20,000 nt of DNA from an uncultured virus (IMG/VR IMGVR_UViG_3300027971_000053) (IMGVR_UViG_3300027971_000053), one strand, 5' to 3'. Counted from the first letter of the stretch, positions 1,230 through 20,000 are shown. A program made the numbers and translations. Notes: generated from the letters alone by a model not told the origin.

Positions 1230-1237
1230 GATTGTCC

Positions 1238-6799: not shown

Positions 6800-6800
6800 A

Positions 6801-6992: not shown

Positions 6993-7636
6993 TTCTCTAA
7001 CTCCCTTTTAATCATTAGTTGTAAACGTTTTGCTTCAATCAGTTCTTTTGGTATGGCACTTGCGTGCAACCTAAACCCTGTACTCTTTGATAACAGATAT
7101 GCAACATAGTTATCTCTTACTTCTGTTACTAACTTGCCGTTTGACTTGCGTATGTACTCTCTACGCTTTTGCAAATATCCTTCGGGGTCTTTTACCAGTA
7201 GCCTTTGTTTTGCTTCTTGGCGTTGCGCCCTTACCTTCTCAGGATTCTCGGCAAACCTACGCTGTGCCGCTTTTTTTGCTGTTTGCCTTACGTGTTCTTT
7301 GTTGTTATCTCTATACTTTTTCTGTAACTCCTTCCATCTCTCAGGGTTTGCCTTTCGCCACGCTTTAGAGCGCGCACGCATGCGCTCTTTGTTGTAGTTC
7401 TCTTGGTGCCACTCCTTACTATAAGCGTTGCTCTTTTCTTTATTGGCTTGGTAATATGCACGCCGATACTCTCGTTTATATTCTTCCGTCCATTTTGTTT
7501 TCTTAGGTTGAGGTGGGTGCGCTTGGGCATATCGCTCTCTAGCTTTGGCTCGCATTTCCTCCAAGTTCTTTTCACGATACACTTTGTTTTTCTTTCTGTT
7601 GCACTCACGTCGTTTCTCAGGATCTTTGTAAGGCAT
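6989..7636 (-). CDS. K/R/E-rich repetitive helical protein (215 aa), probable nucleic-acid binder
   Basis: Repeated (Y/W)xxxNxE units (YREKNLE, YYQANKE, WRKANPE, YRDNNKE, FAENPE); no catalytic HNH motif seen. Confidence 0.7.
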   Translation of the reverse strand: MPYKDPEKRRECNRKKNKVYREKNLEEMRAKARERYAQAHPPQPKKTKWTEEYKREYRRAYYQANKEKSNAYSKEWHQENYNKERMRARSKAWRKANPERWKELQKKYRDNNKEHVRQTAKKAAQRRFAENPEKVRAQRQEAKQRLLVKDPEGYLQKRREYIRKSNGKLVTEVRDNYVAYLLSKSTGFRLHASAIPKELIEAKRLQLMIKRELEK

Positions 7637-7645
7637 GTTACCCCC

Positions 7646-8518
7646 TTAGAAATTAAACTTAGATAAGATGTCATCGACCTGAGTCTTAACATCGGTACGT
7701 GCACCCACATCCTTGCGTAAGTCTTTCACATCAATACCACCGATGGCTTTCTTTAGCGCCTTGCGTGCGTCATCTAGCTGTGGATCGTTGATTATATTCA
7801 AACTGCTAGCCAAGTCGCACAAATCATGAGCACCATCTAGCAACGAGTCGTGGAACTTGCGGGGCTTAGCCTCACCACTAACATAGTCAATAGACAGGCG
7901 ATCAGACATACGCTTGAGGTGCTCAAGTAATCTACCCTTGATGTCCTTCATCGCATACTCAACTCGCTCGTCAGCAAGGCTTGACAACTTCTTGCGGAGT
8001 TCTTCTTGCGCATCATTGCCGATGTCCACCCTAAAGTCACCCGATGCAGGCACAGGCATGTAGTTCACATTGAAGTTGAACCGATGCTCGATGTCGTTAG
8101 GGTTAGGGTAGTCGTTGCGGTTGAACATATCACCGAGAGCCATAGCTTGTGCAGTAATCAGCGATGGGTACACAGTAACGAACTCAGTAACCAGCCCATG
8201 AAATCTATCCTCTGCTTGTTGTAGCTTAGTATTAAATTCCATAAACTTAGCGCTTGGCAATAGTCGTATACCCGAGTCACTCCAAGGCAACGTATTGTCA
8301 TACACATAGCTACGTGTTTCTGTAACGTGCTGACCTACTACTTCCAACTCGCTACGCCCTGCGAATAGGTTCTTGTTAACTCGAGCCGCACCCTTAGCCT
8401 GTGCATGCTTGTTACTAACCAACTCGTCAGTAGTCGAGCGATCTAGCTTGCGTGCAGTCCATTGTGATACGTTGAGTTCTACTAGTAATGCGCATGTGTC
8501 AATGTTATAGCGTGTCAT
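7646..8518 (-). CDS. DUF3150-like protein (290 aa)
   Basis: LVELNVSQWTARKLD, TLPWSDSGIRLLP, FVTVYP, DYP...F, LNIINDPQL; resembles the phage/ICE family that accompanies AAA-vWA modules (recall, not searched). Confidence 0.6.
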   Translation of the reverse strand: MTRYNIDTCALLVELNVSQWTARKLDRSTTDELVSNKHAQAKGAARVNKNLFAGRSELEVVGQHVTETRSYVYDNTLPWSDSGIRLLPSAKFMEFNTKLQQAEDRFHGLVTEFVTVYPSLITAQAMALGDMFNRNDYPNPNDIEHRFNFNVNYMPVPASGDFRVDIGNDAQEELRKKLSSLADERVEYAMKDIKGRLLEHLKRMSDRLSIDYVSGEAKPRKFHDSLLDGAHDLCDLASSLNIINDPQLDDARKALKKAIGGIDVKDLRKDVGARTDVKTQVDDILSKFNF

Positions 8519-8527
8519 ACATCCCCC

Positions 8528-8926
8528 TTAGTTAATGCCTAGTTGTTTGAATAAATCATCAAGGTCATCCATCTTCTCGGTGCGTGTGATGAGTACAAAG
8601 CGCTTGTCATCTGATGCACCTACCTTATGACATTGCTTACCCCACAACACAGTAGCCGTTGATGACGCTGAACCATACACAGTTTCTAAATCGTATGGTG
8701 ATACCGGTATGCGTGCCGTCTGATTAACCGCTATGTGATCAAGGTAAGGCTTGATGTGCTTACGAATGACGCCGTACGGATACTTCGCTGGTCTGCGTTT
8801 GGATTTGGAAACGACTTCCAACTCGCCGTACTTCTTAAGATCAACGTCGATGATGGCATACTTAGCGCCGATTGCGTTTAACAATTTAACTGCGTTGGTC
8901 AATGCTTTTGTATGAACAGTATTCAT
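8528..8926 (-). CDS. hypothetical protein (132 aa)
   Basis: ORF with AAGGAG upstream, within the AAA/vWA operon. Confidence 0.7.
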   Translation of the reverse strand: MNTVHTKALTNAVKLLNAIGAKYAIIDVDLKKYGELEVVSKSKRRPAKYPYGVIRKHIKPYLDHIAVNQTARIPVSPYDLETVYGSASSTATVLWGKQCHKVGASDDKRFVLITRTEKMDDLDDLFKQLGIN

Positions 8927-8940
8927 AGTTGTAGTGCTCC

Positions 8941-10131
8941 TTAGTTTGAGTAGATACGAACTGCTTTGCCTTGCGGTGGTTTGAAGTGGTCGTTGTCAAC
9001 TACGCCCCATAATGCAGGCACATCGACGCACGCATTGCTACCATCTAAATACCCATCGGTTAACCACACAACACCTTTGGGTTTGTACTTCTTGTCACGA
9101 ATGTATTGCACAACGCACTCAGGGGAAGTGCCACCGCCACCCTGTGGGGAAAGAAGATGACCGATGTTCACAAACTGCTCGGGCTTGAACAACTGCTCAC
9201 CGCACACAGCACTATCCCACCACACGACACGCACAGAGTCAGGTCGTACATTCTCTGCAATGCGGGCGATCTCACCAAACACAGTAGGCAAGATACCGCC
9301 CATAGAGCCTGATGTATCACACGCAACGATGAGCTCACCAGTAGCCTCAGAGAAGTGAGACGGCATGACAATGCCAAGAGGTAGCAAGCGCTTGTTGGGT
9401 GGCGCAAAGCGAGAGTACTCATCACCCTCACATAGTGCAGTAACCCACTCACGCAAGTGCTCACGCCAGTTGGTGTCACGCTTCTGTGTAGCACGATCGA
9501 GTGGGCTATTGCGAGAACCCTGACCAGCTAACTTGTCAGCTAACAACTTACCCTGACGACCGGCATCATCTAGCTGACGACCTAGCTCGTTGGCTTCCTT
9601 ACTGCCTAGCTCAACTGCCTTGTCGAACATATGCGTATCCATAGCACCGCCGTTTTGTTGCTGTTGCTGTTGTGGTGGGGGGTTACGCAACAAGTCTTGC
9701 AACACCTCGATGAAAGACCAACCTTGATACTTGACGTCGATCAATGGCGCAGGATCTACTATGCGCTCGACAAACGTGAAGTTGGGGTCGATCTCCTCGA
9801 TGGTTGCATTGACTACATAGTCCATAGCCATGTTGCATAACTGTGGATACTTCTTGGATAGCTCCTTGTAGTTAGTGCAGTGCATCAACGCCTTGTGCAA
9901 CGACTCGTGCGCAACAAGATAACGCAACTGCTTGCGGTTAAGACCACCGACAAACGCAGGGTCATACCATACATCACGACCATCTGTACCTGCTGTGCCG
10001 ATGTCCTCAAACTTGACGTCGCCGATATACACATAGCCTGATAGACCAGCGAAGTCCTTGTTGTTGCTGAAGTCAACGTGTACTGCAATCACCCGATTGG
10101 GTGGGGTTAGTTTGTCCCATGTCTTAGACAT
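8941..10131 (-). CDS. DUF2201-like metallopeptidase plus vWA domain protein
   Basis: TAGTDG, LVAHESLH (HExxH), NMAMDYVVN; C-terminal MIDAS CDTSGSM, GGGGT, WLTDGY; PPPQQQQQQ linker. Confidence 0.88.
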   Translation of the reverse strand: MSKTWDKLTPPNRVIAVHVDFSNNKDFAGLSGYVYIGDVKFEDIGTAGTDGRDVWYDPAFVGGLNRKQLRYLVAHESLHKALMHCTNYKELSKKYPQLCNMAMDYVVNATIEEIDPNFTFVERIVDPAPLIDVKYQGWSFIEVLQDLLRNPPPQQQQQQNGGAMDTHMFDKAVELGSKEANELGRQLDDAGRQGKLLADKLAGQGSRNSPLDRATQKRDTNWREHLREWVTALCEGDEYSRFAPPNKRLLPLGIVMPSHFSEATGELIVACDTSGSMGGILPTVFGEIARIAENVRPDSVRVVWWDSAVCGEQLFKPEQFVNIGHLLSPQGGGGTSPECVVQYIRDKKYKPKGVVWLTDGYLDGSNACVDVPALWGVVDNDHFKPPQGKAVRIYSN

Positions 10132-10142
10132 TTGCTTTCTCC

Positions 10143-11258
10143 TTATTTGGTTGAGAAGTAAATCTTGTTGTCATTCATCAATGCTTGGAACGGCTTGACT
10201 GTGACGAACAATGCGGCACGAGTAGAGTTAGCAATGTTGTTAGCGAACATAGACTGCAACTCCTTGCGGTTACGCATGACGTACTCGGTGCATGCCTCGG
10301 CTTCCTCTCGTGTGCTTGTATCCGTAACACACTTGAGCACAGTAATGATCTGCGCCACAGGATTGCTAGGGATAGGGCAAGTAGATGGTGAGCTAACTAT
10401 TCTGCTAAACGCAGGCGTCTCGTCACCGAAGCGAATGAACGCACCCAATTCCTCAGCACCAGCACGACCGATCGTACCCTCGAGTAGACCCTGCAACGTA
10501 TCGGTATCCATGAACTCACGCTCTTTGACAATGTCTGACGCAGAGTGTAGTGAGCGAGGTGTGATGTAAGCCTGCTGAGATAACAACGGATTGAAGATAA
10601 CGTCATTCTCCTTAGACTGATCACGACCTGCATACTTACCGCCATCTTGATAGTCAAGGAAGCTATCGAACCATTTCGTGTGTCGCTCGGTGCATGCCAA
10701 GATGATAGAGTCGATGCCGTTGTCGATACCCCAGTTGTACCACTCAGGTTGCGTAGGCTTACGCATAGTCAAGAACACAAGACGATTACGCAAGTGCGCC
10801 TGTATCGAATCACCCAAGCCCTCGACCGCAAGGTTAGTACCAGCGAACACGACTGAACCCTCAGCCATCTGATAGTTACCAACGGCACGCTCGTACACAA
10901 TCGGAGCAAGTACGTCTTTGATGTACTGCTTAGCCTTAGCCAACTCATCGAGGAACACAAGCGATGGGCGAGCACCATTGATACCCCTTTGATTAGCCTT
11001 GCTGACACCGAAGCGCTCGTTGGGTAGCTCACGAGATACGCCTGCATCACGATCAATGTCAGGCATCCACACAGAACCATCAGACATCTGAGTACAGTCG
11101 AGCTTGACCGCAACGTGATTGGCGAAGTGTGGGTCACGCTCAAGGGTGTGATAAATACCAGTCTTACCGATACCATTCTCACCTTGAACAATGATGGTGC
11201 GCTTGTGACCAATCATCTTGATTGCGTTTGCTACTTGTAATGAATTAAGTAATTTCAT
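10143..11258 (-). CDS. MoxR/dynein-related AAA+ ATPase
   Basis: Walker A GENGIGKT, Walker B LVFLDEL, sensor 1 FAGTN, arginine finger LRNRL, sensor 2 TPRS. Confidence 0.9.
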   Translation of the reverse strand: MKLLNSLQVANAIKMIGHKRTIIVQGENGIGKTGIYHTLERDPHFANHVAVKLDCTQMSDGSVWMPDIDRDAGVSRELPNERFGVSKANQRGINGARPSLVFLDELAKAKQYIKDVLAPIVYERAVGNYQMAEGSVVFAGTNLAVEGLGDSIQAHLRNRLVFLTMRKPTQPEWYNWGIDNGIDSIILACTERHTKWFDSFLDYQDGGKYAGRDQSKENDVIFNPLLSQQAYITPRSLHSASDIVKEREFMDTDTLQGLLEGTIGRAGAEELGAFIRFGDETPAFSRIVSSPSTCPIPSNPVAQIITVLKCVTDTSTREEAEACTEYVMRNRKELQSMFANNIANSTRAALFVTVKPFQALMNDNKIYFSTK

Positions 11259-11301
11259 GGTGTTTATATCCTCGTTTGATTAGTACTACTGTTTTTTAGA
11301 A

Positions 11302-11329
11302 ATTGTAACATACTACTTTATAGAAACAA
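11302..11329 (-). promoter_or_regulatory. sigma70-type promoter upstream of the AAA/vWA operon
   Basis: Minus strand reads TTGTTT-16 nt-TACAAT with an extended -10 TG (TGtTACAAT), in an AT-rich intergenic gap. Confidence 0.55.
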
Positions 11330-11336
11330 CAACTAC

Positions 11337-12320
11337 TTAACCTCCTTTCTTGTTGGCACGGGTGTAATAAGTTCTCGGCAACGTCTTGTCAAACTGTGGC
11401 AGGGCTATTGAATCTGTACCCTTGGATAGCCCAGCAAACGACATCAGCCTAGCTACCAATGACTTCTTGAACTCGTCAGCGGTAATGGCTTGTACTATGT
11501 CATCAGCCTTTTCCTGCGCATCGTCAGCCTCGGCAGGGTTGCGTGACCTAGCCCAACCACTCATCTTGTGGAACAGATTGCCGCTATGCTCGTTGTACAC
11601 CTTCTTACTAGCTAGCATGTCGAAGCAATCCTGCGCTACCTCGTCAAAGGTCTGCATAAAAGCCGTTGACTCAAGGGGTAGGGGTAGGTTAAACAGCGCA
11701 TCCATCATGGTTGACTGAAGGGCATACCCTAGGCGTGACTCACCAAACGGCTTGCCCATGTTAGACGATAGGTTGACACACTCCTTAAGCGTGGGTAGCT
11801 TGAACATCTGAAGCGTGACGTAGGCATCGAGTTCTTTCTTGATGTCCTTGCGCTTTTGCTTGTCACCCTCGTTTGAGGCAAGGCGGTATATATCTGCATG
11901 CCATGACTTCTCCGCAATGAGTTGGTGAGAGCTGTTGTAGGTAAGCAAAGCCGAGAAGTCTTTGCCCTGCTCCTTGTAGTGTGGGTTGAGTGGCAAGCGA
12001 ACTGCATCGCCTGTGGTAGTGCGTAAGCCAATGCCGTTGTAGTAGCCTGTGAACTTGTACTGTAGTTGTATGTCATAAGTACCATACAAGCCAATGACTG
12101 CTACCTCGTACTCACCCTGATCATTTGGTTCATACACCCTGACGACATCTACGCCGTTGACCTTGTACACATAGCTGTGTGCGTCCTTCTGAAGCATGAG
12201 GTTGTACTCGGATACCCTGCGTAGGGGTCGTTGGAACTCGTTGTACCGCTTACTGCGTGGTGGCTTCTTGGTCTTGTTGAATTGATCTTGTGCTGATTGG
12301 TAGGTTACTGTTGTGTACAT
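11337..12320 (-). CDS. hypothetical phage protein (327 aa)
   Basis: Long ORF with a strong AAGGAG RBS; no motif recognised. Confidence 0.8.
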   Translation of the reverse strand: MYTTVTYQSAQDQFNKTKKPPRSKRYNEFQRPLRRVSEYNLMLQKDAHSYVYKVNGVDVVRVYEPNDQGEYEVAVIGLYGTYDIQLQYKFTGYYNGIGLRTTTGDAVRLPLNPHYKEQGKDFSALLTYNSSHQLIAEKSWHADIYRLASNEGDKQKRKDIKKELDAYVTLQMFKLPTLKECVNLSSNMGKPFGESRLGYALQSTMMDALFNLPLPLESTAFMQTFDEVAQDCFDMLASKKVYNEHSGNLFHKMSGWARSRNPAEADDAQEKADDIVQAITADEFKKSLVARLMSFAGLSKGTDSIALPQFDKTLPRTYYTRANKKGG

Positions 12321-12337
12321 ATTGATTCTCCTTTGGT

Positions 12338-13192
12338 TTACTTGCTGATTGAAATAGTTGCATTGCTTAGGTACGAGTCAACCGCACCATCGATCTTGTC
12401 GCTGACCACATCATCAATGCGATCGCCAACTGCATCACTCACCGCATCATCGAAGTCGAAGTGGTAGCTTGGGTCAAAGTTATTCTCGAAGTAAGACTCA
12501 ACCTCACTCTCCACAACTTCTTGCACAGCGTCTTTGGCTAGGTCTTCGATGCCTGCCCCGATCAACTCATGTCGCACCAAGTCTTTGAACCAGTCTGCTT
12601 GTTGTAGTGTGAGTGATACGCATTCTTGGAGAGAATTCTCTCCAGCCTCGGGTTGGGCTTTAGATTGGCTGATGACCGAAGTAAGAAGCTGAAGCTGGGT
12701 ACAGATGTTGTTGATGATGTCGGCTAGGGTTGGGGTAGCCTGTGGTTCGGGTGCGCCGAGTGTACCCCCGTGTGTGTACTGAATTGCATCAGGGTTTGGT
12801 AGGCGTATGTTGTCTACTATGTCCTGCATTGTTGGTTCGGGTATAGCCCTGTTCTCCACAAGTGAGTGCAATACTTCCTTGGTTTCTCTCGGCACTTCGG
12901 GTGCGTTAAGGTGGTCGAGTAATAGTTCTTTCAATCCGATATTTTCCATCTGCTTAAACTCCTCGTCTTGTTCGTGGGTTGTAGGTACTGCGTTGTTAAG
13001 GTCTTGCATTGTGAATGTGGTCATGCTGTTTCTCCTTGTGGTAATGGTTCGATTGATTTCATCTACTTCGGCGATAACCCACTCATCTGTGGGCTCAAAG
13101 ATTTCCATAGCTATTTCGCAGGCATCTTCGGGACTCTCTGCCTCAACTAACTCAACGGAATAGCTAGCTACTACAACTCGGTACTCTTTCAT
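12338..13192 (-). CDS. acidic hypothetical protein; second in-frame start at 13024 with strong RBS
   Basis: 284-aa ORF with a D/E-rich C-terminus; AAGGAGAAACAGCATG precedes MTTFTM at 13024. Confidence 0.75.
   Translation of the reverse strand: MKEYRVVVASYSVELVEAESPEDACEIAMEIFEPTDEWVIAEVDEINRTITTRRNSMTTFTMQDLNNAVPTTHEQDEEFKQMENIGLKELLLDHLNAPEVPRETKEVLHSLVENRAIPEPTMQDIVDNIRLPNPDAIQYTHGGTLGAPEPQATPTLADIINNICTQLQLLTSVISQSKAQPEAGENSLQECVSLTLQQADWFKDLVRHELIGAGIEDLAKDAVQEVVESEVESYFENNFDPSYHFDFDDAVSDAVGDRIDDVVSDKIDGAVDSYLSNATISISK
12628..12643. repeat. 16-bp palindrome copy 1 (intragenic)
   Basis: GGAGAGAATTCTCTCC exact; extends to 18 bp with flanking T and A; read as GENSL. Confidence 0.97.
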
Positions 13193-13644
13193 ACGCTTTC
13201 TCCTATCGCTTGGTTGAACTGCTCGGATACACCTACTTCTACTTCTTCGCTACTATGCTTACTTCTAATCGTTACATACGCACCACCATCTGTGATGGCT
13301 ATTTCCTGATGTCCTATACCACCCCACCCATTTTCTATATCACAGTCAATACCTAAATGAAACACGATTGATTGCGCCCCTTGAAGGGACTTGACTAGCC
13401 CTCGTGCCATCTTGTACTCCAATATGTAGTCGTCTTTGATCGTGACATCAATCCATACAGGCAGGTCGGTGTACTCGCTGTTGGTGTACATATCCTCGGT
13501 AAACTCGATGGGGTGTGAGCAGTCTTTCTTTAGCTCAGCCCATGCTTGCGCCCAATCTTCTTGCGTATCAGGGTCTGTTGGTGGTTCGCTAAGCCACTCG
13601 TTGTCCCCACTATGTAAGTACATGTATCGTCTGCTGTTACTCAT
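13189..13644 (-). CDS. acidic hypothetical protein (151 aa)
   Basis: Likely start MSNSRR at 13644 after a purine-rich RBS region; the track's longer version overlaps the membrane-peptide ORF. Confidence 0.7.
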   Translation of the reverse strand: MSNSRRYMYLHSGDNEWLSEPPTDPDTQEDWAQAWAELKKDCSHPIEFTEDMYTNSEYTDLPVWIDVTIKDDYILEYKMARGLVKSLQGAQSIVFHLGIDCDIENGWGGIGHQEIAITDGGAYVTIRSKHSSEEVEVGVSEQFNQAIGESV

Positions 13645-13646
13645 CT

Positions 13647-13781
13647 CTATTTCCTTTCTCCTAGTTCGCATAGTTTGGCTATGCACCATAACAACCCAGC
13701 AAATAACCCAAAGGTAAGACCAACGGATATAAGCCAAGCACCTATCTCCAACAACCAATACGCCCAATCAATTGCTTCCAT
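13647..13781 (-). CDS. small membrane peptide (44 aa)
   Basis: Manual translation: MEAIDWAYWLLEIGAWLISVGLTFGLFAGLLWCIAKLCELGERK; one hydrophobic segment and a charged tail. Confidence 0.6.
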   Translation of the reverse strand: MEAIDWAYWLLEIGAWLISVGLTFGLFAGLLWCIAKLCELGERK

Positions 13782-14025
13782 GACTAAACTCCGAGTAGCC
13801 ACAGTTCTCAACTAAATGGCGTGCCATATCACTAATGAGGGTTTCAATCTCATCTAGCACTTCGCCACCATACTTAAACTCCCACTCAGTCAACGCACTA
13901 CTTACTTCGTTAATGCGTTCCCACTCAGCTACGCTATCGTCTCGTGCTGGTGGTGCGGTAAGGCAATGAATGATGTTAGGTAAGTCTTCTTCTAATGCGG
14001 TTTCATACTCTGTGTAGTAACTCAT
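13768..14025 (-). CDS. acidic hypothetical protein (85 aa)
   Basis: GAGGAG RBS and ATGA overlap. Confidence 0.7.
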   Translation of the reverse strand: MSYYTEYETALEEDLPNIIHCLTAPPARDDSVAEWERINEVSSALTEWEFKYGGEVLDEIETLISDMARHLVENCGYSEFSHGSN

Positions 14026-14387
14026 ACCAACTCCTCCTCTCGTGCTAATACGCCTTCAATAAACCCATTAACAAAGCTAGGCAAGCCATCATCAACGGGG
14101 TCGTGATCTTTTAGGTATAGCTTTGTAGCGTGTGCCTCTAACTCTTGTATGTACTCATCGTCATACACCCAGTCGTATGTCTCAACAGGGCGAATGATGT
14201 ACAGGTAGTTTGTGGTATCAACGCCATCTTTTGCGAACTTGAACTTCATGCGGTCGATCTCCGCTTTCGCTTCTTCTACATACAGATAGCCATACTTGGC
14301 ATACACACATTTGCCAGCCAACCCACCATCGAATACATCTACTGTGTACGACTCGCCTTTCGGCACTTGCTTTAGTCTGCCTCTCAT
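14022..14387 (-). CDS. hypothetical protein (121 aa)
   Basis: AAGGAG RBS. Confidence 0.7.
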   Translation of the reverse strand: MRGRLKQVPKGESYTVDVFDGGLAGKCVYAKYGYLYVEEAKAEIDRMKFKFAKDGVDTTNYLYIIRPVETYDWVYDDEYIQELEAHATKLYLKDHDPVDDGLPSFVNGFIEGVLAREEELV

Positions 14388-14424
14388 AATGATTCTCCTT
14401 GTCTAATAGATTGTGCTAGTTGTT

Positions 14425-14440
14425 GGAGAGAATTCTCTCC
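14425..14440. repeat. 16-bp palindrome copy 2 (intergenic)
   Basis: GGAGAGAATTCTCTCC exact. Confidence 0.97.
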
Positions 14441-14447
14441 GTCTCTT

Positions 14448-14555
14448 TTAAAACCACACCCACAACATAAAGGCACGAAACATCTGTGCGATAAAGAAAA
14501 GTGCAACTAAAGCTAGCACCGCCCATATAAACCGATCTTCGTCCATCCATTTCAT
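14448..14555 (-). CDS. small membrane peptide (35 aa)
   Basis: Manual translation: MKWMDEDRFIWAVLALVALFFIAQMFRAFMLWVWF; ATGA overlap with the upstream stop. Confidence 0.6.
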   Translation of the reverse strand: MKWMDEDRFIWAVLALVALFFIAQMFRAFMLWVWF

Positions 14556-15193
14556 AATGCACCTACCTTTCTTCGTTTGATTAACTCGTTGATTTTGATG
14601 CTTGGAGAGATTTCTCTCCCGTCCTTTGCTTGCTCAAGCAAGTCTTGTCTTATTCGTTTAGCCTCTGCGTAGTTGTAGCTATGTTGATCTAGCAAAGCGT
14701 GTTGTAGGGGTGTTGCGTCTTCGGGCATTTGATTCTTGTATGAGTAGTAGCGGCTAGCATACGCCGTGACCTGTTTTTGTAGGTTTGTTTTAAGTTCATC
14801 TTGCCACAGGGTTCGCTTCTTCTGCCAATACTCTTTCATTACCTTTGCCCTTTTCTTGGGCAGGGCTTCACGCTTCTCGGCTATCAGGGCTTCGCCTATC
14901 GTGGGGTTCATGTCCCCGCTACTTATTTTATTTCTTATCTCTTTGATGCTTAGCGGTGTTCTGCGTTTGCGTTGGTTTCTACAGTCTTTGCACAATGAGC
15001 TGTACAGCGTGTGCCGTGTGGTTAGGTTCGGTTTGCGTAGCAACGCTTTGCTCTGTGCAAGGGTGAGCACCCGATGGAAATCTTTTTTGGGTTTGGTTTC
15101 ACCGCAAGTTTTGCACAGAAGAGTGATGACCGAAGTTGGGAGAGAATTCTCTCCGAGTTGTGTGTTGACGGATTTTCCCTTGTGCTGGTGCAT
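14552..15193 (-). CDS. basic zinc-finger protein (213 aa)
   Basis: Start MHQHKG at 15193 after AAGGAG; CKTC...CKDC cysteine pairs; K/R-rich. Confidence 0.72.
   Translation of the reverse strand: MHQHKGKSVNTQLGENSLPTSVITLLCKTCGETKPKKDFHRVLTLAQSKALLRKPNLTTRHTLYSSLCKDCRNQRKRRTPLSIKEIRNKISSGDMNPTIGEALIAEKREALPKKRAKVMKEYWQKKRTLWQDELKTNLQKQVTAYASRYYSYKNQMPEDATPLQHALLDQHSYNYAEAKRIRQDLLEQAKDGREISPSIKINELIKRRKVGAL
14604..14619. repeat. 16-bp palindrome copy 3 (one mismatch, intragenic)
   Basis: GGAGAGATTTCTCTCC; read as GREISP. Confidence 0.92.
15139..15154. repeat. 16-bp palindrome copy 4 (intragenic)
   Basis: GGAGAGAATTCTCTCC exact; read as GENSL. Confidence 0.97.
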
Positions 15194-15210
15194 GATGTTC
15201 TCCTTAAAAA

Positions 15211-15511
15211 TCTGCCAATAGTCTACCAATTCACTGCAGGTGGACGCAGTACTAGACGCCACGAGAAGTATACATTATAAGGCTTGAGAGATATAGTGAC
15301 CAAGATATATACGAGTCACAGAGTTTTATTAAAGTAACTAAGTTTTTCAACAAGATTACTCTGTCCACTTTTTTCTCTCTTATTATTATGTATTCTATTC
15401 TCTTTTATATATATATAGGTAGGTTGCCAAGTTGACGCAATCATATTCTATATACCTTTGGGGGTGTCCACTATGTGTCCACTAGTGCTCAAATGGTAGA
15501 CTATTGGCAGA
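15211..15511. repeat. 18-bp inverted repeat flanking an AT-rich non-coding core (origin-like)
   Basis: TCTGCCAATAGTCTACCA at 15211-15228 and its exact reverse complement at 15494-15511; GTCCAC motifs and a TATATATATA tract inside. Confidence 0.85.
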
Positions 15512-15562
15512 AAAGGGGGTAAAAGGTGTTCTCCACAATAGCTTGCAGAGAACCTATGTGAT

Positions 15563-15578
15563 GGAGAGAATTCTCTCC
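15563..15578. repeat. 16-bp palindrome copy 5 (intergenic)
   Basis: GGAGAGAATTCTCTCC exact, 3 nt after the stop of ORF 15582-15797. Confidence 0.97.
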
Positions 15579-15581
15579 GAG

Positions 15582-15797
15582 TCATGCCCACTTAGAGCGA
15601 GCCAATGCGACTGTTGTCACAATGAACCAACCATCTTGAAAGCCATCATTAGCACCTAACTTCTTGAGTGCATTGAGTGCTGTCTTGTAGTGGTCGTGGC
15701 ATTTCATTGTGCCGTCAGTATCTCGTTGGAATGAACAGATAAGCCCGTCCTCTTTGTAGATAACATGATAGCCCGTTGGGTTGAGTTTCTTTTTCAT
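15582..15797 (-). CDS. hypothetical protein (71 aa)
   Basis: AAGGAG RBS. Confidence 0.7.
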   Translation of the reverse strand: MKKKLNPTGYHVIYKEDGLICSFQRDTDGTMKCHDHYKTALNALKKLGANDGFQDGWFIVTTVALARSKWA

Positions 15798-15801
15798 GGT
15801 G

Positions 15802-15960
15802 TTACTCCTTATGTTGTTTGTAAATGGTGATGCTGAACTGATTGAACGCTGACTGCATGGATACTTCTACCTCTACTTCTTTGGGTTTTGTGCAGGGTTT
15901 CTGCACAACTTGTTGCTTAGCCTGAGCCTTAAGTAAGGCGCATTGTTGCTTGGTTAACAT
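15802..15960 (-). CDS. hypothetical protein (52 aa)
   Basis: Manual translation: MLTKQQCALLKAQAKQQVVQKPCTKPKEVEVEVSMQSAFNQFSITIYKQHKE; AAGGAG RBS. Confidence 0.6.
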   Translation of the reverse strand: MLTKQQCALLKAQAKQQVVQKPCTKPKEVEVEVSMQSAFNQFSITIYKQHKE

Positions 15961-16097
15961 GGTGATTCTCCTTTGTAGTGCTTCTGTAATATGGTTTCGA
16001 TCTTTAGTACTGTGGTGCGTAGGTGCTTGGCAATGTATTCGGGAGATCGACCCTTGTGATACATCAAGCAGACGATAAAGCTAGAGAACATAGTCAT
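15954..16097 (-). CDS. small helix-turn-helix-like protein (47 aa)
   Basis: Manual translation: MTMFSSFIVCLMYHKGRSPEYIAKHLRTTVLKIETILQKHYKGESPC; GxSxxxIAxxLxxT pattern; GAGGAG RBS and ATGA overlap. Confidence 0.55.
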   Translation of the reverse strand: MTMFSSFIVCLMYHKGRSPEYIAKHLRTTVLKIETILQKHYKGESPC

Positions 16098-16318
16098 ACT
16101 TGCTCCTCGTATGTTCTGAACCAAAAGGCTAGGCTTTCGTGTGTGCCAGACCTATTATCAGACGGCTCGTTACTAAACCGCAGTACATACTGATGGTCGC
16201 ACTTGTACATATCCGCAGGCTCATACTTTTGAATAGGCACAAACACAGTACCCAAGAACTGACAGGCAGGACAATCGTGTTCGTACAAAGGTGTTGCTAA
16301 GTGTTTCATTGATGACAT
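16094..16318 (-). CDS. hypothetical protein with HDCxxC motif (74 aa)
   Basis: PLYEHDCPACQFLG...DMYKC; AAGGAG RBS. Confidence 0.7.
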   Translation of the reverse strand: MSSMKHLATPLYEHDCPACQFLGTVFVPIQKYEPADMYKCDHQYVLRFSNEPSDNRSGTHESLAFWFRTYEEQV

Positions 16319-16340
16319 GGTGTTTCTCCTTCGTTGGTTG

Positions 16341-16356
16341 GGAGAGAATTCTCTCC
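16341..16356. repeat. 16-bp palindrome copy 6 (intergenic)
   Basis: GGAGAGAATTCTCTCC exact, 4 nt after the stop of ORF 16361-16588. Confidence 0.97.
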
Positions 16357-16360
16357 GAGG

Positions 16361-16588
16361 TTAACCCCACACAGAGATGTGTGAAGTGAGTTCATACGAC
16401 AAGCGATCGTGGAGATCGTCCCAATCATATGTGGTGAGCCTGTGCTTTTGATCTCTAGCCAACTCAATGAGTTTGGCAAGGTCTTGCGGAGACATGGACA
16501 ATACAACGCTGTTCCGCTTGAACTCTTTGTAGTCAATGGCTATTGGCTTAGCCTTCTTTGGGATTGGTTTTGCTGGTGCTTTTTGCAT
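16361..16588 (-). CDS. hypothetical protein (75 aa)
   Basis: AGGAG RBS; basic N-terminus. Confidence 0.7.
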   Translation of the reverse strand: MQKAPAKPIPKKAKPIAIDYKEFKRNSVVLSMSPQDLAKLIELARDQKHRLTTYDWDDLHDRLSYELTSHISVWG

Positions 16589-16621
16589 GATTAACTCCTG
16601 TGTTGTGGTACTTGTTGGTGG

Positions 16622-16673
16622 GAAAGGGCAAGACTTGACACGAAACTAAACAGCCTTGAAGCCTCGCCCTCTC
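16622..16673 (-). other. intergenic 15-bp RNA stem-loop (RNase III-like site candidate)
   Basis: Minus strand GAGAGGGCGAGGCTT pairs with AAGTCTTGCCCTTTC, including 3 G-U pairs, around 22 nt. Confidence 0.65.
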
Positions 16674-16675
16674 GG

Positions 16676-17098
16676 TTACTTGCGTGAAACACGCTTGAAA
16701 AACTTCTCCTGCTGAGCTTTAGTCATTGACTCAACCAAAGCCAAAGCCTGCTCCACAACATCTACCTGAGCTGATACTGTTGCTGAGTCCTTCTTAGTCT
16801 CAGGGCGAATGATGTGATACCTAAAGTCAGAATAGGCTCTTGAATAGGCGTTGTTGTGCTCCTTGTTGCGTTGTGTACGGCTCTTGGAGAGAATTCTCTC
16901 CGCAACTTGTTGCGTAACATCTAACTGACCCATCAAGTGTTGCGTGACCCACTCCTTGAGCCTGTCGGCTCGTGTTGTGCTGTCGGCTTTCTTGTACTCC
17001 AAATGCCACACAAGAGATGACTCACGCAACAAGCGGGCTTGAGTGCCTAGACCAAAGGCGAATTGTGAATAAGATACAACGATTGAGTTTTGTTTCAT
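16676..17098 (-). CDS. first early gene, hypothetical (140 aa)
   Basis: AAGGAG RBS; first ORF downstream of the minus-strand promoters. Confidence 0.8.
   Translation of the reverse strand: MKQNSIVVSYSQFAFGLGTQARLLRESSLVWHLEYKKADSTTRADRLKEWVTQHLMGQLDVTQQVAERILSKSRTQRNKEHNNAYSRAYSDFRYHIIRPETKKDSATVSAQVDVVEQALALVESMTKAQQEKFFKRVSRK
16886..16901. repeat. 16-bp palindrome copy 7 (intragenic)
   Basis: GGAGAGAATTCTCTCC exact; read as AERILS. Confidence 0.97.
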
Positions 17099-17120
17099 GG
17101 TATTACTCCTTGATTAAGAT

Positions 17121-17152
17121 AAAAAAAATCGGCTGAAAACTTCTCAACCGAT
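17121..17152 (-). terminator. terminator-like leader hairpin before the first early gene
   Basis: Minus strand ATCGGTTGA-gaagttt-TCAGCCGAT running into a T8 tract. Confidence 0.65.
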
Positions 17153-17320
17153 ACCTCTATTATAAAGATTGGGGTATTTTTTAAACGATTTGAACCCCAC
17201 CCGATACCCACCAACCTGTTTGGTCGTCAAGCCTGCTTGTCCCCCAGATCACTGTTCCTCAGCCATTCCGTTGAATTTTGTCAAATCTTGTATAAAAGCG
17301 ATTTACCGGGGGGTATAAAT

Positions 17321-17349
17321 TTTATAAAAAATGCTAGGGGTTATGTCAA
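17321..17349 (-). promoter_or_regulatory. sigma70 promoter for the early arm
   Basis: Minus strand TTGACA-17 nt-TATAAA; another minus-strand TATAAT lies at 17159-17164. Confidence 0.65.
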
Positions 17350-17402
17350 ACTTTATACAGAAAAGTGCATGAAATTTCAATAAAAAAACATGCAAAACTA
17401 AA

Positions 17403-17433
17403 TGATGCAGCGCAACAAAATGTGTAATATAAT
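17403..17433 (+). promoter_or_regulatory. promoter of the 38-aa ORF with an overlapping PhaR-like inverted repeat
   Basis: TGATGC-AGC-GCAACA at 17403-17417 covers the -35 position; TATAAT at 17428-17433. Confidence 0.5.
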
Positions 17434-17463
17434 ACACAAACTAATAACCTAAAGGAGAAAACC

Positions 17464-17580
17464 ATGTTTGATTTCACTAAACAAACCAAGCAGTTCGAGC
17501 AGTTGGCAGAGCGCATCAAGGAAGTAAACGATTTTTGGATCGACGCTTTTATTTCAAGCATCAAGCAGTTCACTAAGTAA
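17464..17580 (+). CDS. small amphipathic helical protein (38 aa)
   Basis: Manual translation: MFDFTKQTKQFEQLAERIKEVNDFWIDAFISSIKQFTK; AAGGAG RBS and upstream TATAAT. Confidence 0.75.
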   Translation: MFDFTKQTKQFEQLAERIKEVNDFWIDAFISSIKQFTK

Positions 17581-17667
17581 TAAAAAACCCCCACGTCTTA
17601 GGTGGGGGTTCAAAAAATGCCCTACTAATCAACACCAACGCCCAAACGAAGGAGGAAAAGCGCTGGT
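17581..17667 (-). ncRNA. candidate small RNA with anti-Shine-Dalgarno loop
   Basis: Minus-strand TATAAT at 17674-17679; 5' hairpin ACCAGCGCUU/GGGCGUUGGU with loop UUCCUCCUUCGUUU; 3' intrinsic terminator. Confidence 0.6.
17582..17610 (-). terminator. intrinsic terminator (minus-oriented, possibly bidirectional)
   Basis: AACCCCCAC-ctaagac-GTGGGGGTT running into a T tract on the minus strand. Confidence 0.8.
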
Positions 17668-17750
17668 AAACAAATTATACACAAAAACTAAAAAACAATA
17701 TATACTCCAGCCATACGTGAGCACCACACGCAACCAAAGGGGAATAGCAT

Positions 17751-18329
17751 TTGTTTTTAGAACACCTAGTCACAGCATCTGCAGCAGACTTTGTACCGGA
17801 CATCCTGCCCGACAAGACCCCTTTCACTGAATTAAATACCACCACACCAGCGCAAACGCTAAACGCCCAGAAGAAAACATCTGACTGGTTAGCCCAGTTT
17901 GACGACGATGACGAAGCAACGCTTACTAAAACCCAAGAAGAAAAAGTAACCGACACTTTCAACGCTTTAACCCGTGCAGACCCCAACGCAAAAAACAAAT
18001 TACTACAGCTCGACCTGCCAGAAGAGATAAAAGCAGCTATTGGAATGGTGACGGCCTACCAGTGGAAGTTTGTTGAGCAGGCAGAAAACTTAAGAAGCCT
18101 TGCGGTATCGAAAATAGTAAAAGAAATTGAGCACCCCGACGCCCGTATCAGGCTTAAAGCATTGGAAATGCTAGGAAAAGTTACAGAAGTGGCGTTGTTC
18201 ACCGACAGAGTCCAAGTAAAAACAGAAGAAATCAGTGACGAAGAGTTAGATAAACAGATCAAAGACAAACTTGAGCGGTACATGGGCGCTGTTGATGTAG
18301 TAGATGCCGATGTTAAGGATGTAGAGTAG
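17751..18329 (+). CDS. terS: probable terminase small subunit
   Basis: Directly upstream of terL; helical RLKALEMLGK motif and acidic tail; TTG start uncertain. Confidence 0.65.
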   Translation: MFLEHLVTASAADFVPDILPDKTPFTELNTTTPAQTLNAQKKTSDWLAQFDDDDEATLTKTQEEKVTDTFNALTRADPNAKNKLLQLDLPEEIKAAIGMVTAYQWKFVEQAENLRSLAVSKIVKEIEHPDARIRLKALEMLGKVTEVALFTDRVQVKTEEISDEELDKQIKDKLERYMGAVDVVDADVKDVE

Positions 18330-18331
18330 TC

Positions 18332-19864
18332 GTGGATTTAGATTTTTTAACTCCCGAAGAAGCCTTGGCAGCACAAAAGGCACTCAAAGACATGAATAAA
18401 GCGCAAAAGATTGCATATCTGAATCTTTTGGAGAAGAAAGAAGAGCGCGGTAATTTAAAACTAGCGCAGACAAGCCCGATAGAGTTCGCAAAACGCGTAT
18501 ATCCTGGGTTTAAAGTAGGCCCGCACCATAGAAGGTTAGCTAAAATCTTCCAAGACGTAGTCGATGGTAAGAAAAAGCGGGTTATTATTAATATTGCACC
18601 ACGTATGGGTAAGTCGGAGTTCAGCTCTTACTTATTCCCCGCCTATTTTTTAGGCAACTTCCCCCATAAGAAGATCATCATGGGAACCCATACGGCGTCT
18701 CTCTCCGAAGACTTTGGTCGACGGGTAAGGAACTTAATTGACTCAGAAGAATACAGAGAAATCTTCCCAGATACCGTTGTTGCGGCGGACCAGAAAGCGG
18801 CTGGGAAATGGAGTACAGGTGCTGGTGGTCAGTATTATGCTGCTGGTGTCGGAGGCGCTCTTGCCGGACGGGGTGCTGACTTATTTGTTATTGATGATCC
18901 ACATTCCGAACAAGATATGAAGGCTAACAGCCGCCTAGCGTTTGACAATGCGTGGTCTTGGTTTCAAACAGGTCCGTTGCAACGTTTAATGCCAGGTGGT
19001 GCGATCATTGTGATCATGACTCGGTGGAGTTTGTTAGATTTGACTGGGCGTTTGCTTGACTACCAGACCAAAAACCCAGAAACCATACCTTGGGAGATAG
19101 TTGAGCTACCAGCTATCATGGATGCCGGTACGGAAAATGAGAAATCTTTGTGGCCTGCGCAGTGGAGCCTAGAAGCGTTAAAAAATACCCAGCAGTCCAT
19201 TGACCCACGGTACTGGAACGCCCAGTACATGCAAAATCCCACTAGTGACATGAGCGCATTAGTTGGAAGAAAAGATTGGAAGATATGGGAAGACGATGAT
19301 CCACCCAAGTGTGAGTACGTAATCCAGTCTTGGGATACGGCGTTCGAGACAAAGAACAACTCAGACTATTCTGCTTGCACAACCTGGGGTGTTTTCTACG
19401 ATAACGAGGATAAACGCAACCCCAACATCATCTTGCTAGACGCTTTTAAAGACCGCATGACCTTTCCAGAGCTAAAGCAAATTGCACTCAAACACTACAA
19501 AGAGTGGACGCCAGATGCTTTCATTGTGGAGAAAAAGGCGGCGGGTGCGCCGTTGATACAAGAGCTGCGGTTGATTGGAATACCTGTACAAGAATTTTCT
19601 CCATCCAGAGGCAACGACAAGATGGTCAGATTGAACGCTGTAGCTGATCTGTTTACAAGTGGTAAAGTATGGGCACCAGATACCCGCTGGGCAAGAGAAG
19701 TGATTGAAGAAATTGCATCGTTTCCAGTTGGCGAACACGATGACTTCGTGGATACTTGCACACAGGCGCTACTGCGTTATCGGCAGGGGGGCTTTATTAG
19801 CCTTGAAACAGATGAACAAGAAGATTTAACTTACAAATACCGCAGACGTGCGGCATATTACTAG
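18332..19864 (+). CDS. terL: terminase large subunit
   Basis: Walker A IAPRMGKS, Walker B FVIDDP, IMTRW, YMQNP; nuclease domain QSWDTA...DYSA...IVEKKAAG...HDDFVD. Confidence 0.96.
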   Translation: MDLDFLTPEEALAAQKALKDMNKAQKIAYLNLLEKKEERGNLKLAQTSPIEFAKRVYPGFKVGPHHRRLAKIFQDVVDGKKKRVIINIAPRMGKSEFSSYLFPAYFLGNFPHKKIIMGTHTASLSEDFGRRVRNLIDSEEYREIFPDTVVAADQKAAGKWSTGAGGQYYAAGVGGALAGRGADLFVIDDPHSEQDMKANSRLAFDNAWSWFQTGPLQRLMPGGAIIVIMTRWSLLDLTGRLLDYQTKNPETIPWEIVELPAIMDAGTENEKSLWPAQWSLEALKNTQQSIDPRYWNAQYMQNPTSDMSALVGRKDWKIWEDDDPPKCEYVIQSWDTAFETKNNSDYSACTTWGVFYDNEDKRNPNIILLDAFKDRMTFPELKQIALKHYKEWTPDAFIVEKKAAGAPLIQELRLIGIPVQEFSPSRGNDKMVRLNAVADLFTSGKVWAPDTRWAREVIEEIASFPVGEHDDFVDTCTQALLRYRQGGFISLETDEQEDLTYKYRRRAAYY

Positions 19865-19872
19865 GACCAAAA

Positions 19873-20000
19873 ATGAGCATAGAAAAAAGTTTATACGCCG
19901 CCCCACAGGGTTTAGCAAGCATAGAACAAGAGCCAGACATTGAAATTGAGATCGAAGATCCAGAATCAGTAAAACTTAGCCTTGACGGTGAAGAAATCCT
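19873..20000 (+). CDS. probable portal protein, N-terminus (runs off window end)
   Basis: MSIEKSLYAAPQGLASIEQEPDIEIEIEDPESV..., an acidic N-terminus immediately after terL; the call rests mainly on synteny. Confidence 0.6.
   Translation, partial: MSIEKSLYAAPQGLASIEQEPDIEIEIEDPESVKLSLDGEEI

Follow-up and report, generated by a model that had tools for sequence, protein, structure and literature searches.

The leftward operon and its palindrome array

The window, by which we mean the whole 20,000-nucleotide stretch of DNA analysed (G000:C1:28638-48320 of a 48,320-bp record), belongs to an uncultured freshwater phage, and its minus strand carries every gene from position 2 to 17098. The first part of this leftward operon is presumably the early region, judging from its position adjoining the control region. 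It contains seven copies of the 16-base palindrome GGAGAGAATTCTCTCC: six are exact (12628, 14425, 15139, 15563, 16341 and 16886), and the copy at 14604 is a centre variant with a single mismatch. The features are listed in order of transcription, the palindromes without strand.

17128 to 17164, minus strand: leader of the early operon, with a -10-like TATAAT (17164-17159), then a terminator-like hairpin and T-run (17152-17128), directly ahead of the first gene's ribosome-binding site
16676 to 17098, minus strand: first gene of the leftward operon and candidate palindrome reader (140 aa), with a variable helical N-domain and a C-terminal helical hairpin common to all classes
16886 to 16901: palindrome copy 1, in the first early gene, encoding ERILS (residues 67-71)
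16341 to 16356: palindrome copy 2, intergenic, 4 nt past the stop of ORF 16361-16588 and 22 nt ahead of the ATG at 16318
15890 to 15906: stray foreign-class palindrome GTGCAG-N5-CTGCAC, single copy in ORF 15802-15960; hairpin listed at 15888-15908
15563 to 15578: palindrome copy 3, 3 nt past the stop of ORF 15582-15797 and at the upstream end of intergenic region 15263-15580
14552 to 15193, minus strand: early gene encoding CxxC pairs, weakly matching HNH/endonuclease VII (phrog_2340, E 2e-4) and hosting two palindrome copies
15139 to 15154: palindrome copy 4, within the 5' portion of gene 14552-15193 and read GENSLP
14604 to 14619: palindrome copy 5, the centre variant (ATTT on the plus strand, AAAT in sense), within the 3' portion of gene 14552-15193 and read GREISP
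14425 to 14440: palindrome copy 6, intergenic, 7 nt past the stop of the small ORF 14446-14556 and 37 nt ahead of the ATG at 14387
12628 to 12643: palindrome copy 7, the most distal, within ORF 12338-13192, read GENSLQ

A search of the window allowing up to 2 mismatches returned 7 matches in total, exactly those described in an earlier sequence-only reading, and none of 200 dinucleotide shuffles contained any match, the chance expectation being none. No further copy was found in the whole 48,320-bp record, even with 4 mismatches allowed. By our own arithmetic, seven random sites would all fall inside 4.3 of 48.3 kb with p ∼4e-6. Spacings from copy to copy range from 179 to 1797 bp. Translation of the ORFs agreed with the earlier description of the in-gene copies: four of the seven are read as AERILS (16676-17098), GENSLP and GREISP (both in 14552-15193) and GENSLQ (12338-13192), using three frames. 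The other three begin 4, 3 and 7 nt past stop codons, again as described. The flank polarity reported earlier is partly confirmed: the window copies read C-site-A/C-A on the sense (minus) strand, and the 178 distinct sites of the relatives tend to symmetric TT...AA flanks. Contigs from runs X3 and X4 of other studies span the copies at 14425, 14604 and 15139 with no listed change within them, and exact copies (2-6 each) occur in eight further IMG/VR records; the array is therefore not an assembly artefact.

The leader of the window phage bears no palindrome copy, unlike those of many relatives, so that simple promoter occlusion does not apply there. Five promoter-like hits were found in 12000-18000, none of them adjoining a site (the nearest at ∼260 nt). 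The same operon encodes a primase-helicase and DNA polymerase A. A Pfam scan of 49 ORFs found no integrase or ParAB (the record is 74% complete) and no ParB/KorB-family protein (26% of the genome lies outside the record), which speaks against the parS/matS-like loading suggested earlier. No transposase or RAYT-like gene was present among the 49 ORFs scanned. Decoying of a host protein, also suggested, fared no better, as the copies in bacterial genomes are single and scattered, about as many as chance would give.

Palindrome classes switch in step among related phages

Relatives were collected as 80 terminase-anchored loci, to which the window was added. Among phages whose terminases are 73-97% identical we found 14 different palindromes of the form 6-N(3-5)-6, with 3-10 copies each. 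Such a palindrome is present in at least three copies at 42 of these loci, which fall into 13 classes; the 14th class, GGGGAG, comes from type-A loci. Within a genome the arms are invariant and the centres variable (201 exact vs 15 near copies). In the relatives, too, copies occur only in the corresponding promoter-proximal part of the leftward operon, and three genomes rated 100% complete (G006, G007 and G012) have all their copies inside 2.8-3.3 kb.

The palindrome switches in step at orthologous positions, even within shared genes. Loci L103 (GGACAG) and L104 (GGATAG) have common flanks and centres at their switched sites. Orthologues of gene 14552-15193 contain at least one site of their own class in 25 of 28 cases, with peptides that differ at the same places; at the place of copy 4, orthologues of other classes bear their own palindrome, and the copy 5 orthologues in G001 and G005 have the identical centre variant. 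The orthologues show that sites become re-tuned to the class of the phage carrying them. Type-A relatives keep a site at the codon position of copy 1, where the change from GGACAG to GGATAG is synonymous (DRILS in both).

The 178 distinct sites are found in varied contexts: 79 lie in coding sequence (by our own gene caller), 44 start -1 to +8 nt past a stop codon, most intergenic ones end 12-40 nt ahead of the next start, and others lie +2 to +17 past a -10 box or past the leader terminator. A terminator-like hairpin is present in every leader. In GGACAG and GGATAG phages a site lies upstream of this terminator, at the place where other phages have a covarying leader hairpin, and in types B and C the leader site comes after the terminator. 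The centres of N4 classes are AT-rich and occur equally in both orientations (GTTT 15 vs AAAC 15; ATTT 11 vs AAAT 12). Those of N5 classes are A-rich with a bias to the sense strand (AAAAC 11 vs GTTTT 0), many of these sites being orthologous. Single arm mismatches were A.C in 8 cases, G.T in 5 and T.C in 1, and wobble pairs are thus not favoured. In L076 and in the Planktothrix phage Pag-Yong1 the symmetry reaches a single central base (7+1+7).

Single foreign-class copies occur in L063, L066 and L083, also in L111, and likewise at 15890-15906 of the window. The latter is orthologous to copies in GTGCAG-class phages, with the same flanks in L063 and L072, and marks a module common to these phages; stray foreign-class copies travel with exchanged modules. 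One break in homology with G005 is 15 nt away from the copy at 16341. Recurrent homology breakpoints are located at gene starts, not at sites.

The first early gene as candidate reader

ORF 16676-17098, one of four candidate binders named by the sequence-only reading, is the one that co-varies with the palindrome. The gene was found at 41 of the 42 classified loci, in all 13 classes. Its product shows the largest between-class contrast, with 68% identity within and 25% between classes (89 vs 82 for terminase), and its three sequence types correspond to three groups of motif and spacing. The 140-aa protein is all-helical by prediction. It has no match in Pfam, PHROGs, the PDB or fold searches (best Foldseek E-value 1.2, best VIA Z 5.1; no recognisable DNA-binding domain), and we regard it as a new protein family.

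Co-variation extends to single residues. At the 41 classified type-A loci, GGATAG goes with M at residue 86 (8 of 8 loci), GGACAG with K (21 of 22), GGAGAG with S or Y (8 of 8) and GGACGG with K (2 of 2), and residue 89 is Y in all eight GGAGAG loci and nowhere else. Metagenome loci added one more sequence background pairing M with GGATAG. In type C, R goes with GGGAAC (4/4) and K with GGGGAC (4/4). The specificity-linked residues 82, 86, 89 and 93 lie on one face of the predicted helix 79-97. The link is broken by L186, which has S with GGACAG, and by L351, which has G with GGACGG. Because the candidate reader gene lies inside the array, its association with the palindrome is inflated by shared descent. 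The tree requires 3 changes for GGATAG, and well-supported branches force only 2 of them; independent pairs agree in direction in 3 of 3 cases, only 1 of them on starred branches, so few that significance is unreachable. Few independent events underlie the residue-to-base link.

The protein is predicted to form a homodimer, with a score of 0.81 against 0.00 for the best of 3 controls. This score is a model confidence; in a benchmark the mark was reached by 20 of 30 proteins solved as same-chain pairs and by 1 of 23 solved as single chains. The runs agreed in at least 85% of contacts, with partner pLDDT of at least 81, and the modelled self-interface contains the C-terminal hairpin. The earlier proposal of a dispersed array for a dimeric protein, conserved at nucleic-acid level, thereby gains comparative support from the co-varying gene and the predicted homodimer, and binding itself is what we infer from them.

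The cultured, distantly related Planktothrix phage Pag-Yong1 (OL906435.1) is organised likewise, with small genes in a leftward operon adjoining the terminase. The 25-kb stretch examined contains 13 copies of GGTTCA-N3-TGAACC, mostly 3-8 nt past stop codons, and its first leftward gene matches the profile of the first-early-gene family (E 6e-7 in a search of the ORFs of three loci only). It differs in having another palindrome, another N-domain and 3 copies in the structural operon. A full-text literature search for the name Pag-Yong1 found no paper.

Possible functions and relation to known systems

We consider it somewhat probable that the palindromes are DNA operators for a dimeric first early protein, acting in stoperator-like regulation or shut-off of early genes. 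The seven palindromes would then be cis sites read by the phage's own protein (16676-17098). This protein most likely forms a symmetric dimer on double-stranded DNA, with each subunit contacting one 6-bp arm and neither touching the AT-rich centre. Made first from the leftward operon, the protein would occupy sites every 0.2-1.8 kb through the operon's first 4.5 kb, one of them in its own gene, and early transcription would be tuned or shut off by blockage of RNA polymerase, as in stoperator arrays.

The same protein might instead read the motif as RNA, with 6-bp hairpins in the early polycistronic mRNA serving translational repression of the next cistron, processing or stability, or a change in termination; we think this unlikely, though it is the main rival. 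At -8.2 kcal/mol the hairpin is stable, and it forms in context at all seven sites; the clustering of sites just past stop codons and ahead of the next start places intergenic ones within reach of a ribosome-binding site, the leaders combine terminator-like hairpins with the GGACAG/GGATAG site that replaces a covarying hairpin, and N5 centres are A-rich in sense; co-variation with the protein fits RNA as well as DNA. The loop cannot be the recognised element, however, as it varies within a genome and N4 loops are equally frequent in both orientations. Moreover, 79 of the sites are inside genes, the leader site of types B and C follows the terminator and cannot antiterminate it, and G.U pairs are not favoured among arm mismatches. 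We counted for DNA over RNA the orientation-neutral N4 centres together with the absence of a wobble preference, the innermost bases of the 7+1+7 palindromes, which could not pair in a hairpin, and the occurrence of sites anywhere in the operon (coding, near a -10 box, past a terminator). The earlier suggestion of a hairpin is weakened accordingly. Its proposed test, in which covariation with a variable centre would favour RNA and invariant bases DNA, was non-decisive because both patterns are present: within one genome the arms do not change, and between genomes they covary.

That no dedicated reader exists is improbable in our judgement. The copies would then be structural hairpins or small mobile palindromes that copying or gene conversion keeps homogeneous, or else another factor, for instance a nuclease promoting module exchange, would target them; their link to the first gene would be genetic linkage alone. 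Such a view would accommodate the foreign-class strays, the G005 breakpoint and the two copies in the HNH-like gene. Against it, sites replace codons in place with no insertion, flanks beyond ∼2 nt are not common to the copies, the transposase search of 49 ORFs was negative, breakpoints recur at gene starts rather than at sites, and in several sequence backgrounds a change of one residue on a single helix face goes with a change of one base pair. Similarly improbable, to our mind, is that the sites are scattered iterons of a λ O-like replication initiator, with an N-terminal origin-specificity domain, a site in its own gene and a conserved C-terminal part recruiting the replication machinery. 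The in-gene site at a conserved codon position, the variable N-domain with its conserved C-terminal tail, and the primase-helicase and polymerase genes in the operon would suit an initiator, but the sites are spread over 4.3 kb rather than gathered beside an AT-rich unwinding element, some classes are without an in-gene copy (L083), and the place of the C-terminal hairpin in the modelled self-interface already explains its conservation. In λ ori, at least four iterons lie within ∼100-200 bp beside an AT-rich region, a far tighter arrangement than the spacings here.

Among known systems, the operator reading is closest to the stoperators of Cluster A mycobacteriophages (L5, Bxb1), which published accounts describe as many regulator sites dispersed in transcription units, most of them away from promoters; they are asymmetric 13-bp sites, oriented with transcription, at 20-30 per genome and genome-wide (PMC6550527, PMC9283540). 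Their reader is described as a monomeric repressor of temperate phages, with an HTH and a second DNA-binding domain (PMC9283540). The likeness lies in the dispersal of one short site in transcription units (here seven copies, none beside a promoter-like hit) and in the joint divergence of site motif and regulator between related phages into specificity classes. The window site differs in being a 16-bp palindrome (15-17 bp in relatives) with N4 centres in both orientations, and copies number 3-10 per genome and are confined to a few kb (7 in 4.3 of 48.3 kb). The candidate reader matches no HTH and is predicted to be a dimer, and the 49 ORFs scanned from the 74% complete record include no integrase or partition gene. 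In the temperate stoperator phages the repressor confers superinfection immunity.

The CIRs of the Streptomyces phage phiC31 are a conserved palindromic 17-bp operator in many intergenic early-region copies, bound by the phage's own c repressor; this temperate phage's repressor is part of another, known system. By description the CIRs resemble the present array in being a conserved palindrome in many early-region copies. λ N, with versions in P22 and phi21, is a small protein encoded by the first early-operon gene and matched to a type-specific nut/boxB hairpin, which is recognised by its conserved loop and occurs once in each operon, a short way downstream of the early promoter. Here, too, a first early gene is paired with a type-specific hairpin-forming sequence and terminators stand in the early leader, but loops vary within a genome while arms are conserved, and seven copies are spread over 4.3 kb, four in genes and none in the window phage's leader. 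PeSL (promoter-early stem-loop) cassettes of T4-type phages are repeated stem-loops between small early genes in a mosaic region and include an early sigma-70 promoter. Repeated stem-loop-forming elements among small early genes are common to both; in the window, 0 of 7 sites adjoin a sigma-70-like promoter hit and 4 of 7 are inside genes. The array also differs from ParB-parS and KorB-OB, given the negative ParB/KorB scan of 49 ORFs from the 74% complete record, and from REP/RAYT elements, which are extragenic, in having four of seven copies in coding sequence and no Y1 (RAYT) transposase among the ORFs scanned.

The many specificity classes among near-identical phages suggest selection to escape cross-regulation by co-infecting relatives. 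We put forward only tentatively that the 140-aa protein founds a new fold, a sequence-specific dimeric reader of double-strand DNA, and that the system is a lytic-phage counterpart of immunity. A handful of residues along one face of a helix would determine specificity, position 86 being K for C:G, M for T:A and S or Y for G:C. If this is true, the first phage to enter would silence the early genes of later arrivals of the same class, and such silencing would drive this freshwater phage group, an abundant one, to diversify into 14 or more site classes.

The palindrome array and its surroundings

The palindrome GGAGAGAATTCTCTCC has six exact copies, at window positions 12628, 14425, 15139, 15563, 16341 and 16886; a seventh, at 14604, differs by one base in the centre. 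This is what the sequence-only reading had claimed, and 200 shuffles gave no match. The source record (IMG/VR, 48,320 bp, rated 74% complete), whose right end is the window, holds these seven copies and no more even at four mismatches, so the copies are all-or-none and stay confined to the window when the whole record is counted. All genes from 2 to 17098 lie on the minus strand and are followed by terminase genes on the plus strand; the copies therefore occupy the opening 4.5 kb of an operon read leftward, in a stretch of small unannotated genes. According to gene calls made with our own heuristics, a stop codon precedes three of the copies by 4, 3 and 7 nt, and the other four lie inside genes, in the three different frames proposed earlier. 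Contigs of runs from other studies span several copies, unchanged, and each of eight other IMG/VR records has 2–6 exact copies, which excludes the assembly artefact that had been considered. Within five records sharing the motif, variants are confined to the central four bases (AATT, AAAT/ATTT, AAGT, AAAC).

Among motif-holding stretches, 11 of 46 have the motif within ∼210 nt of a contig end (IMG/VR loci L006, L010, L019, L022, L025, L031, L034, L039, L041, L045 and L047), and in run X1 unitigs break at the 16341 copy. Assemblies of these phages seem to fragment in the mosaic early region.

Besides tail and virion proteins, the record codes for a primase-helicase, an SNF2-type helicase, DNA polymerase A and nucleases, and for a MoxR-like ATPase whose partner has a VWA domain. 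A Pfam scan of 49 ORFs found no integrase, ParB, HTH regulator, sigma factor or RNA polymerase. By terminase, the nearest cultured relatives (47–53% identity) are pelagiphages HTVC027P and HTVC023P, phage DSL-LC04 and a Planktothrix/Synechococcus phage group, and DNA of this phage is present in freshwater metagenomes. Megablast of 12000–18000 against phage records gave no match, the only PHROGs or Pfam hit among the small early ORFs was a weak HNH/endonuclease VII match for 14552–15193, and neither Rfam at gathering thresholds nor a tRNA/tmRNA search gave any match. Further elements were observed around the array.

Other elements of the early region and its borders
15211–15248 and 15474–15511: 38-nt inverted repeat, 79% complementary, with a perfect 17-nt core CTGCCAATAGTCTACCA, on both sides of an AT-rich intergenic region
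15263–15580: that AT-rich region, with promoter-like TGGTCA-17-TATAAT (minus strand, 15302–15274) and tandem GTGTCCACTA repeats
17099–17460, minus strand: control region upstream of the first early gene, conserved across all classes (alignment A2, 37 relatives), with, in order:
(1) within 17099–17460, minus strand: tandem TTGACA-type promoter boxes
(2) within 17099–17460, minus strand: invariant block GGCTGAGGAACAGTG ... GGTTGGTGGGTATCGGGTGGGGT, G-rich; in some phages a C-run/G-run hairpin instead
(3) within 17099–17460, minus strand: proximal TGGTATAAT-like box
(4) within 17099–17460, minus strand: covarying leader hairpin
(5) within 17099–17460, minus strand: terminator-like hairpin and T-run directly before the ribosome-binding site
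17464–17580, plus strand: 38-codon ORF with a strong ribosome-binding site and no family match, between the control region and the small terminase gene
17585–17611: 10-bp GC-rich hairpin after the 38-codon ORF, reading as a minus-strand terminator
19684–20000: last 317 bases, beyond the end of the source record (window place 19683), continuing the terminase-downstream sequence

The control region could act as an attenuator or leader RNA, or else serve in packaging, as a signal beside the small terminase gene. Either a second control element or, for gene 14552–15193, an internal promoter may lie at 15211–15511.

Several readings of the motif were discarded. Only one GCGATCGC occurs in the 48.3-kb record, which speaks against a cyanobacterial HIP1-type repeat. 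GAATTC is found nine times in 48.3 kb, six of them inside the motif; this density is close to that expected, so nothing follows on avoidance or decoying of EcoRI sites. A host-genome motif was not upheld: at least 120 bacterial or archaeal stretches contain it, and among the matches listed these are single copies scattered over unrelated taxa, at about the chance frequency for a 16-mer in 596 Gb. As for mosaic breakpoints, the recurrent one, at 44446–44449 of the source record, is a gene start, and only one breakpoint falls within 15 nt of a palindrome site.

Palindrome classes and in-place switching of sites

Out of at least 598 stretches, 80 terminase-anchored loci (73–97% terminase identity) were sampled, and classes, defined by the arm sequence, were assigned to sources with at least three palindrome copies. 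Such a 6-N(3–5)-6 palindrome lies upstream of the terminase in 42 of 81 sources (the 80 loci and the window), forming 13 classes; IMG/VR and JGI loci overlap, and locus counts are not counts of independent events. No palindrome reached three copies in the remaining 39 sources, which include many short contigs.

Palindrome classes by number of centre bases
N4: GGAGAG, GGACAG, GGATAG, GGACGG, GGGGAC, GGGAAC, TGGGAC, TGTGTG
N5: GTGCAG, GTGGAG, GTGGAC
N3: AGGACA, GGGAGA

The arms are fixed within a genome (201 exact copies versus 15 near copies), and phages with a terminase 92–97% identical to that of the window carry different classes. All copies of the three genomes rated complete lie inside 2.8–3.3 kb; restriction to the early arm holds in these relatives too. 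Planktothrix phage Pag-Yong1 (OL906435.1) has, in a 25-kb stretch, 13 copies of GGTTCA-N3-TGAACC at 768–22573. Ten are in or beside a leftward operon of small genes, most of them following an annotated stop codon by 3–8 nt, and the structural operon has the other three. No paper turned up in a full-text literature search for this phage by name.

Sites appear in switched form at the same places. Loci L103 (GGACAG) and L104 (GGATAG) have flanks and centres in common at several sites; what separates them is one compensated change, C:G to T:A, made in each copy on both arms. Orthologues of early gene 14552–15193 occur in 28 loci of 12 classes, and 25 of the 28 carry, at two shared places, one or more sites of their own class, the encoded peptide differing accordingly (GENSLP, GTFVP, VQKTCT and others at the N-terminal-side site; GREISP or GTNVP at the C-terminal-side site). 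This argues for selection on the nucleic-acid word, set genome by genome, and bears out the earlier proposal that conservation acts at the level of nucleic acid and not of protein. A few strays of foreign class exist: one GTGCAG-class copy in the window (15890–15906), one GGAGAG copy each in L063, L066 and L083, and one GGACAG copy retained in L111, a GGATAG genome. They fit recent module exchange.

The first early protein as candidate reader

All ORFs of the sampled loci were clustered into families. The family of the first early gene (16676–17098, minus strand) is present in 57 loci, including 41 of the 42 classified loci and all 13 classes, and its protein is 68% identical within a class versus 25% between classes (terminase, 89 versus 82). 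One of the candidate binders named from sequence is thereby found to co-vary with the palindrome class. The protein exists as three sequence types, which match three motif groups and have a common C-terminal tail.

Sequence types of the first early protein and their motif groups
Type A: GGA..G-N4
Type B: N5 geometry
Type C: GGG[G/A]AC or TGGGAC, N4

A fourteenth class, GGGGAG, was found among type-A loci. For the 41 type-A loci assigned to a class, residue 86 reads M in 8/8 GGATAG loci, K in 21/22 GGACAG and 2/2 GGACGG loci, and S (7) or Y (1) in the eight GGAGAG loci, a class also marked by Y89 and N82. Metagenome contigs added a further sequence background combining M at residue 86 with GGATAG, and one GGACGG locus with G at this residue. 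At the corresponding position of type C, R accompanies GGGAAC (4/4) and K accompanies GGGGAC (4/4). On a tree built without the specificity columns, GGATAG needs three changes, two of them forced by supported branches. Independent pairs agree in direction (3/3), too few for significance in a sign test, and because only one lies on supported branches, the link that independent class switches draw between residue 86 and a palindrome base stays suggestive.

At least 283 homologues were found, and all that have a source name are called hypothetical, except one labelled MoxR-like ATPase. Tblastn of the first early protein against phage records gave no match, and searches of Pfam, PHROGs, PDB and folds produced no convincing family, solved sequence or fold. 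The PDB profile search gave only short matches, to designed PPR repeats in which no stretch passed, and these were judged spurious; Foldseek gave no match at E ≤ 0.001; the best ESM Atlas score (0.83) was below the lead threshold. A VIA wide search reached Z 5.1 at best, with the C-terminal hairpin resembling many two-helix hairpins (e.g. the CapH C-terminal domain, Z 5.0), and was considered too weak.

The AlphaFold model is all-helical (pLDDT 82, 14-row alignment) and places residues 82, 86, 89 and 93 on one face of a predicted helix, 79–97. The predicted homodimer scores 0.81 (best of three controls, 0.00). Among proteins of solved structure, 20 of 30 same-chain pairs and 1 of 23 single chains reach that mark; at least 85% of contacts recur between runs, with pLDDT of at least 81. 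The interface named comprises residues 87–88, 90–92, 94–95 and the C-terminal hairpin; residues 82, 86, 89 and 93 are not named, and absence from that list is not the same as exposure. The homodimer prediction lends support, short of proof, to pairing of the protein with itself, in line with the dimeric binder postulated earlier.

Nature of the target and relation to known systems

The palindromes are perhaps slightly better than evenly likely to be DNA operators for a dimer of the first early protein, and, judged from sequence, DNA would roughly be twice as probable a target as RNA. In favour of DNA, sites turn up in any setting: within coding sequence, directly behind a −10 box and after the leader terminator. 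The same protein might instead read RNA hairpins, a possibility about half as probable. The motif folds into a stable hairpin, which also forms in its context at 7/7 sites; a quarter of distinct sites (44/178) start within 8 nt after a stop codon; from the end of most intergenic sites the next start is 12–40 nt away; the sense strand of N5 centres is rich in A; and GGACAG and GGATAG phages have a site where other phages have the covarying leader hairpin. However, N4 centres are AT-rich and equally frequent in both orientations, arm mismatches show no preference for wobble pairs, and some classes as well as Pag-Yong1, at its GGTTCAG-N-CTGAACC sites, have 7+1+7 palindromes whose inner bases are unable to pair in a hairpin, all of which favours DNA over RNA.

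Hairpin promoters for a virion RNA polymerase, as in N4, were also dropped. The 2850-aa virion-region protein (14200–22752 of the source record, outside the window) matches only LPD38 (large polyvalent protein domain) in Pfam, near its C-terminus, and has no PDB sequence match, that is, no solved relative by sequence; intragenic copies and both centre orientations do not fit either.

As described in PMC6550527 and PMC9283540, Cluster A stoperators are likewise many dispersed sites that diverge together with their repressor, but symmetry, orientation, distribution and reader all differ here, so the array is not a member of that system. It also misses a defining feature of each of N/nut, PeSL, ParB-parS, REP/RAYT and lambda O iterons. 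Literature searches on phage palindromes and stoperators turned up no account of this palindrome and reader, and PMC9599517, on the distantly related HTVC023P-type phages, makes no mention of palindromes, inverted repeats, hairpins, operators or promoters.

If real, the system could explain the break-up of early regions in metagenome assemblies. If the operator reading is true, it would provide a defined early-gene control circuit for an abundant, uncultured freshwater podovirus group, built from a protein family without annotation anywhere. Natural variation in many classes links individual residues to individual base pairs and thus forms a ready-made specificity series, which would serve the study of how a regulator and all its sites change jointly, an open problem for dispersed operator networks.
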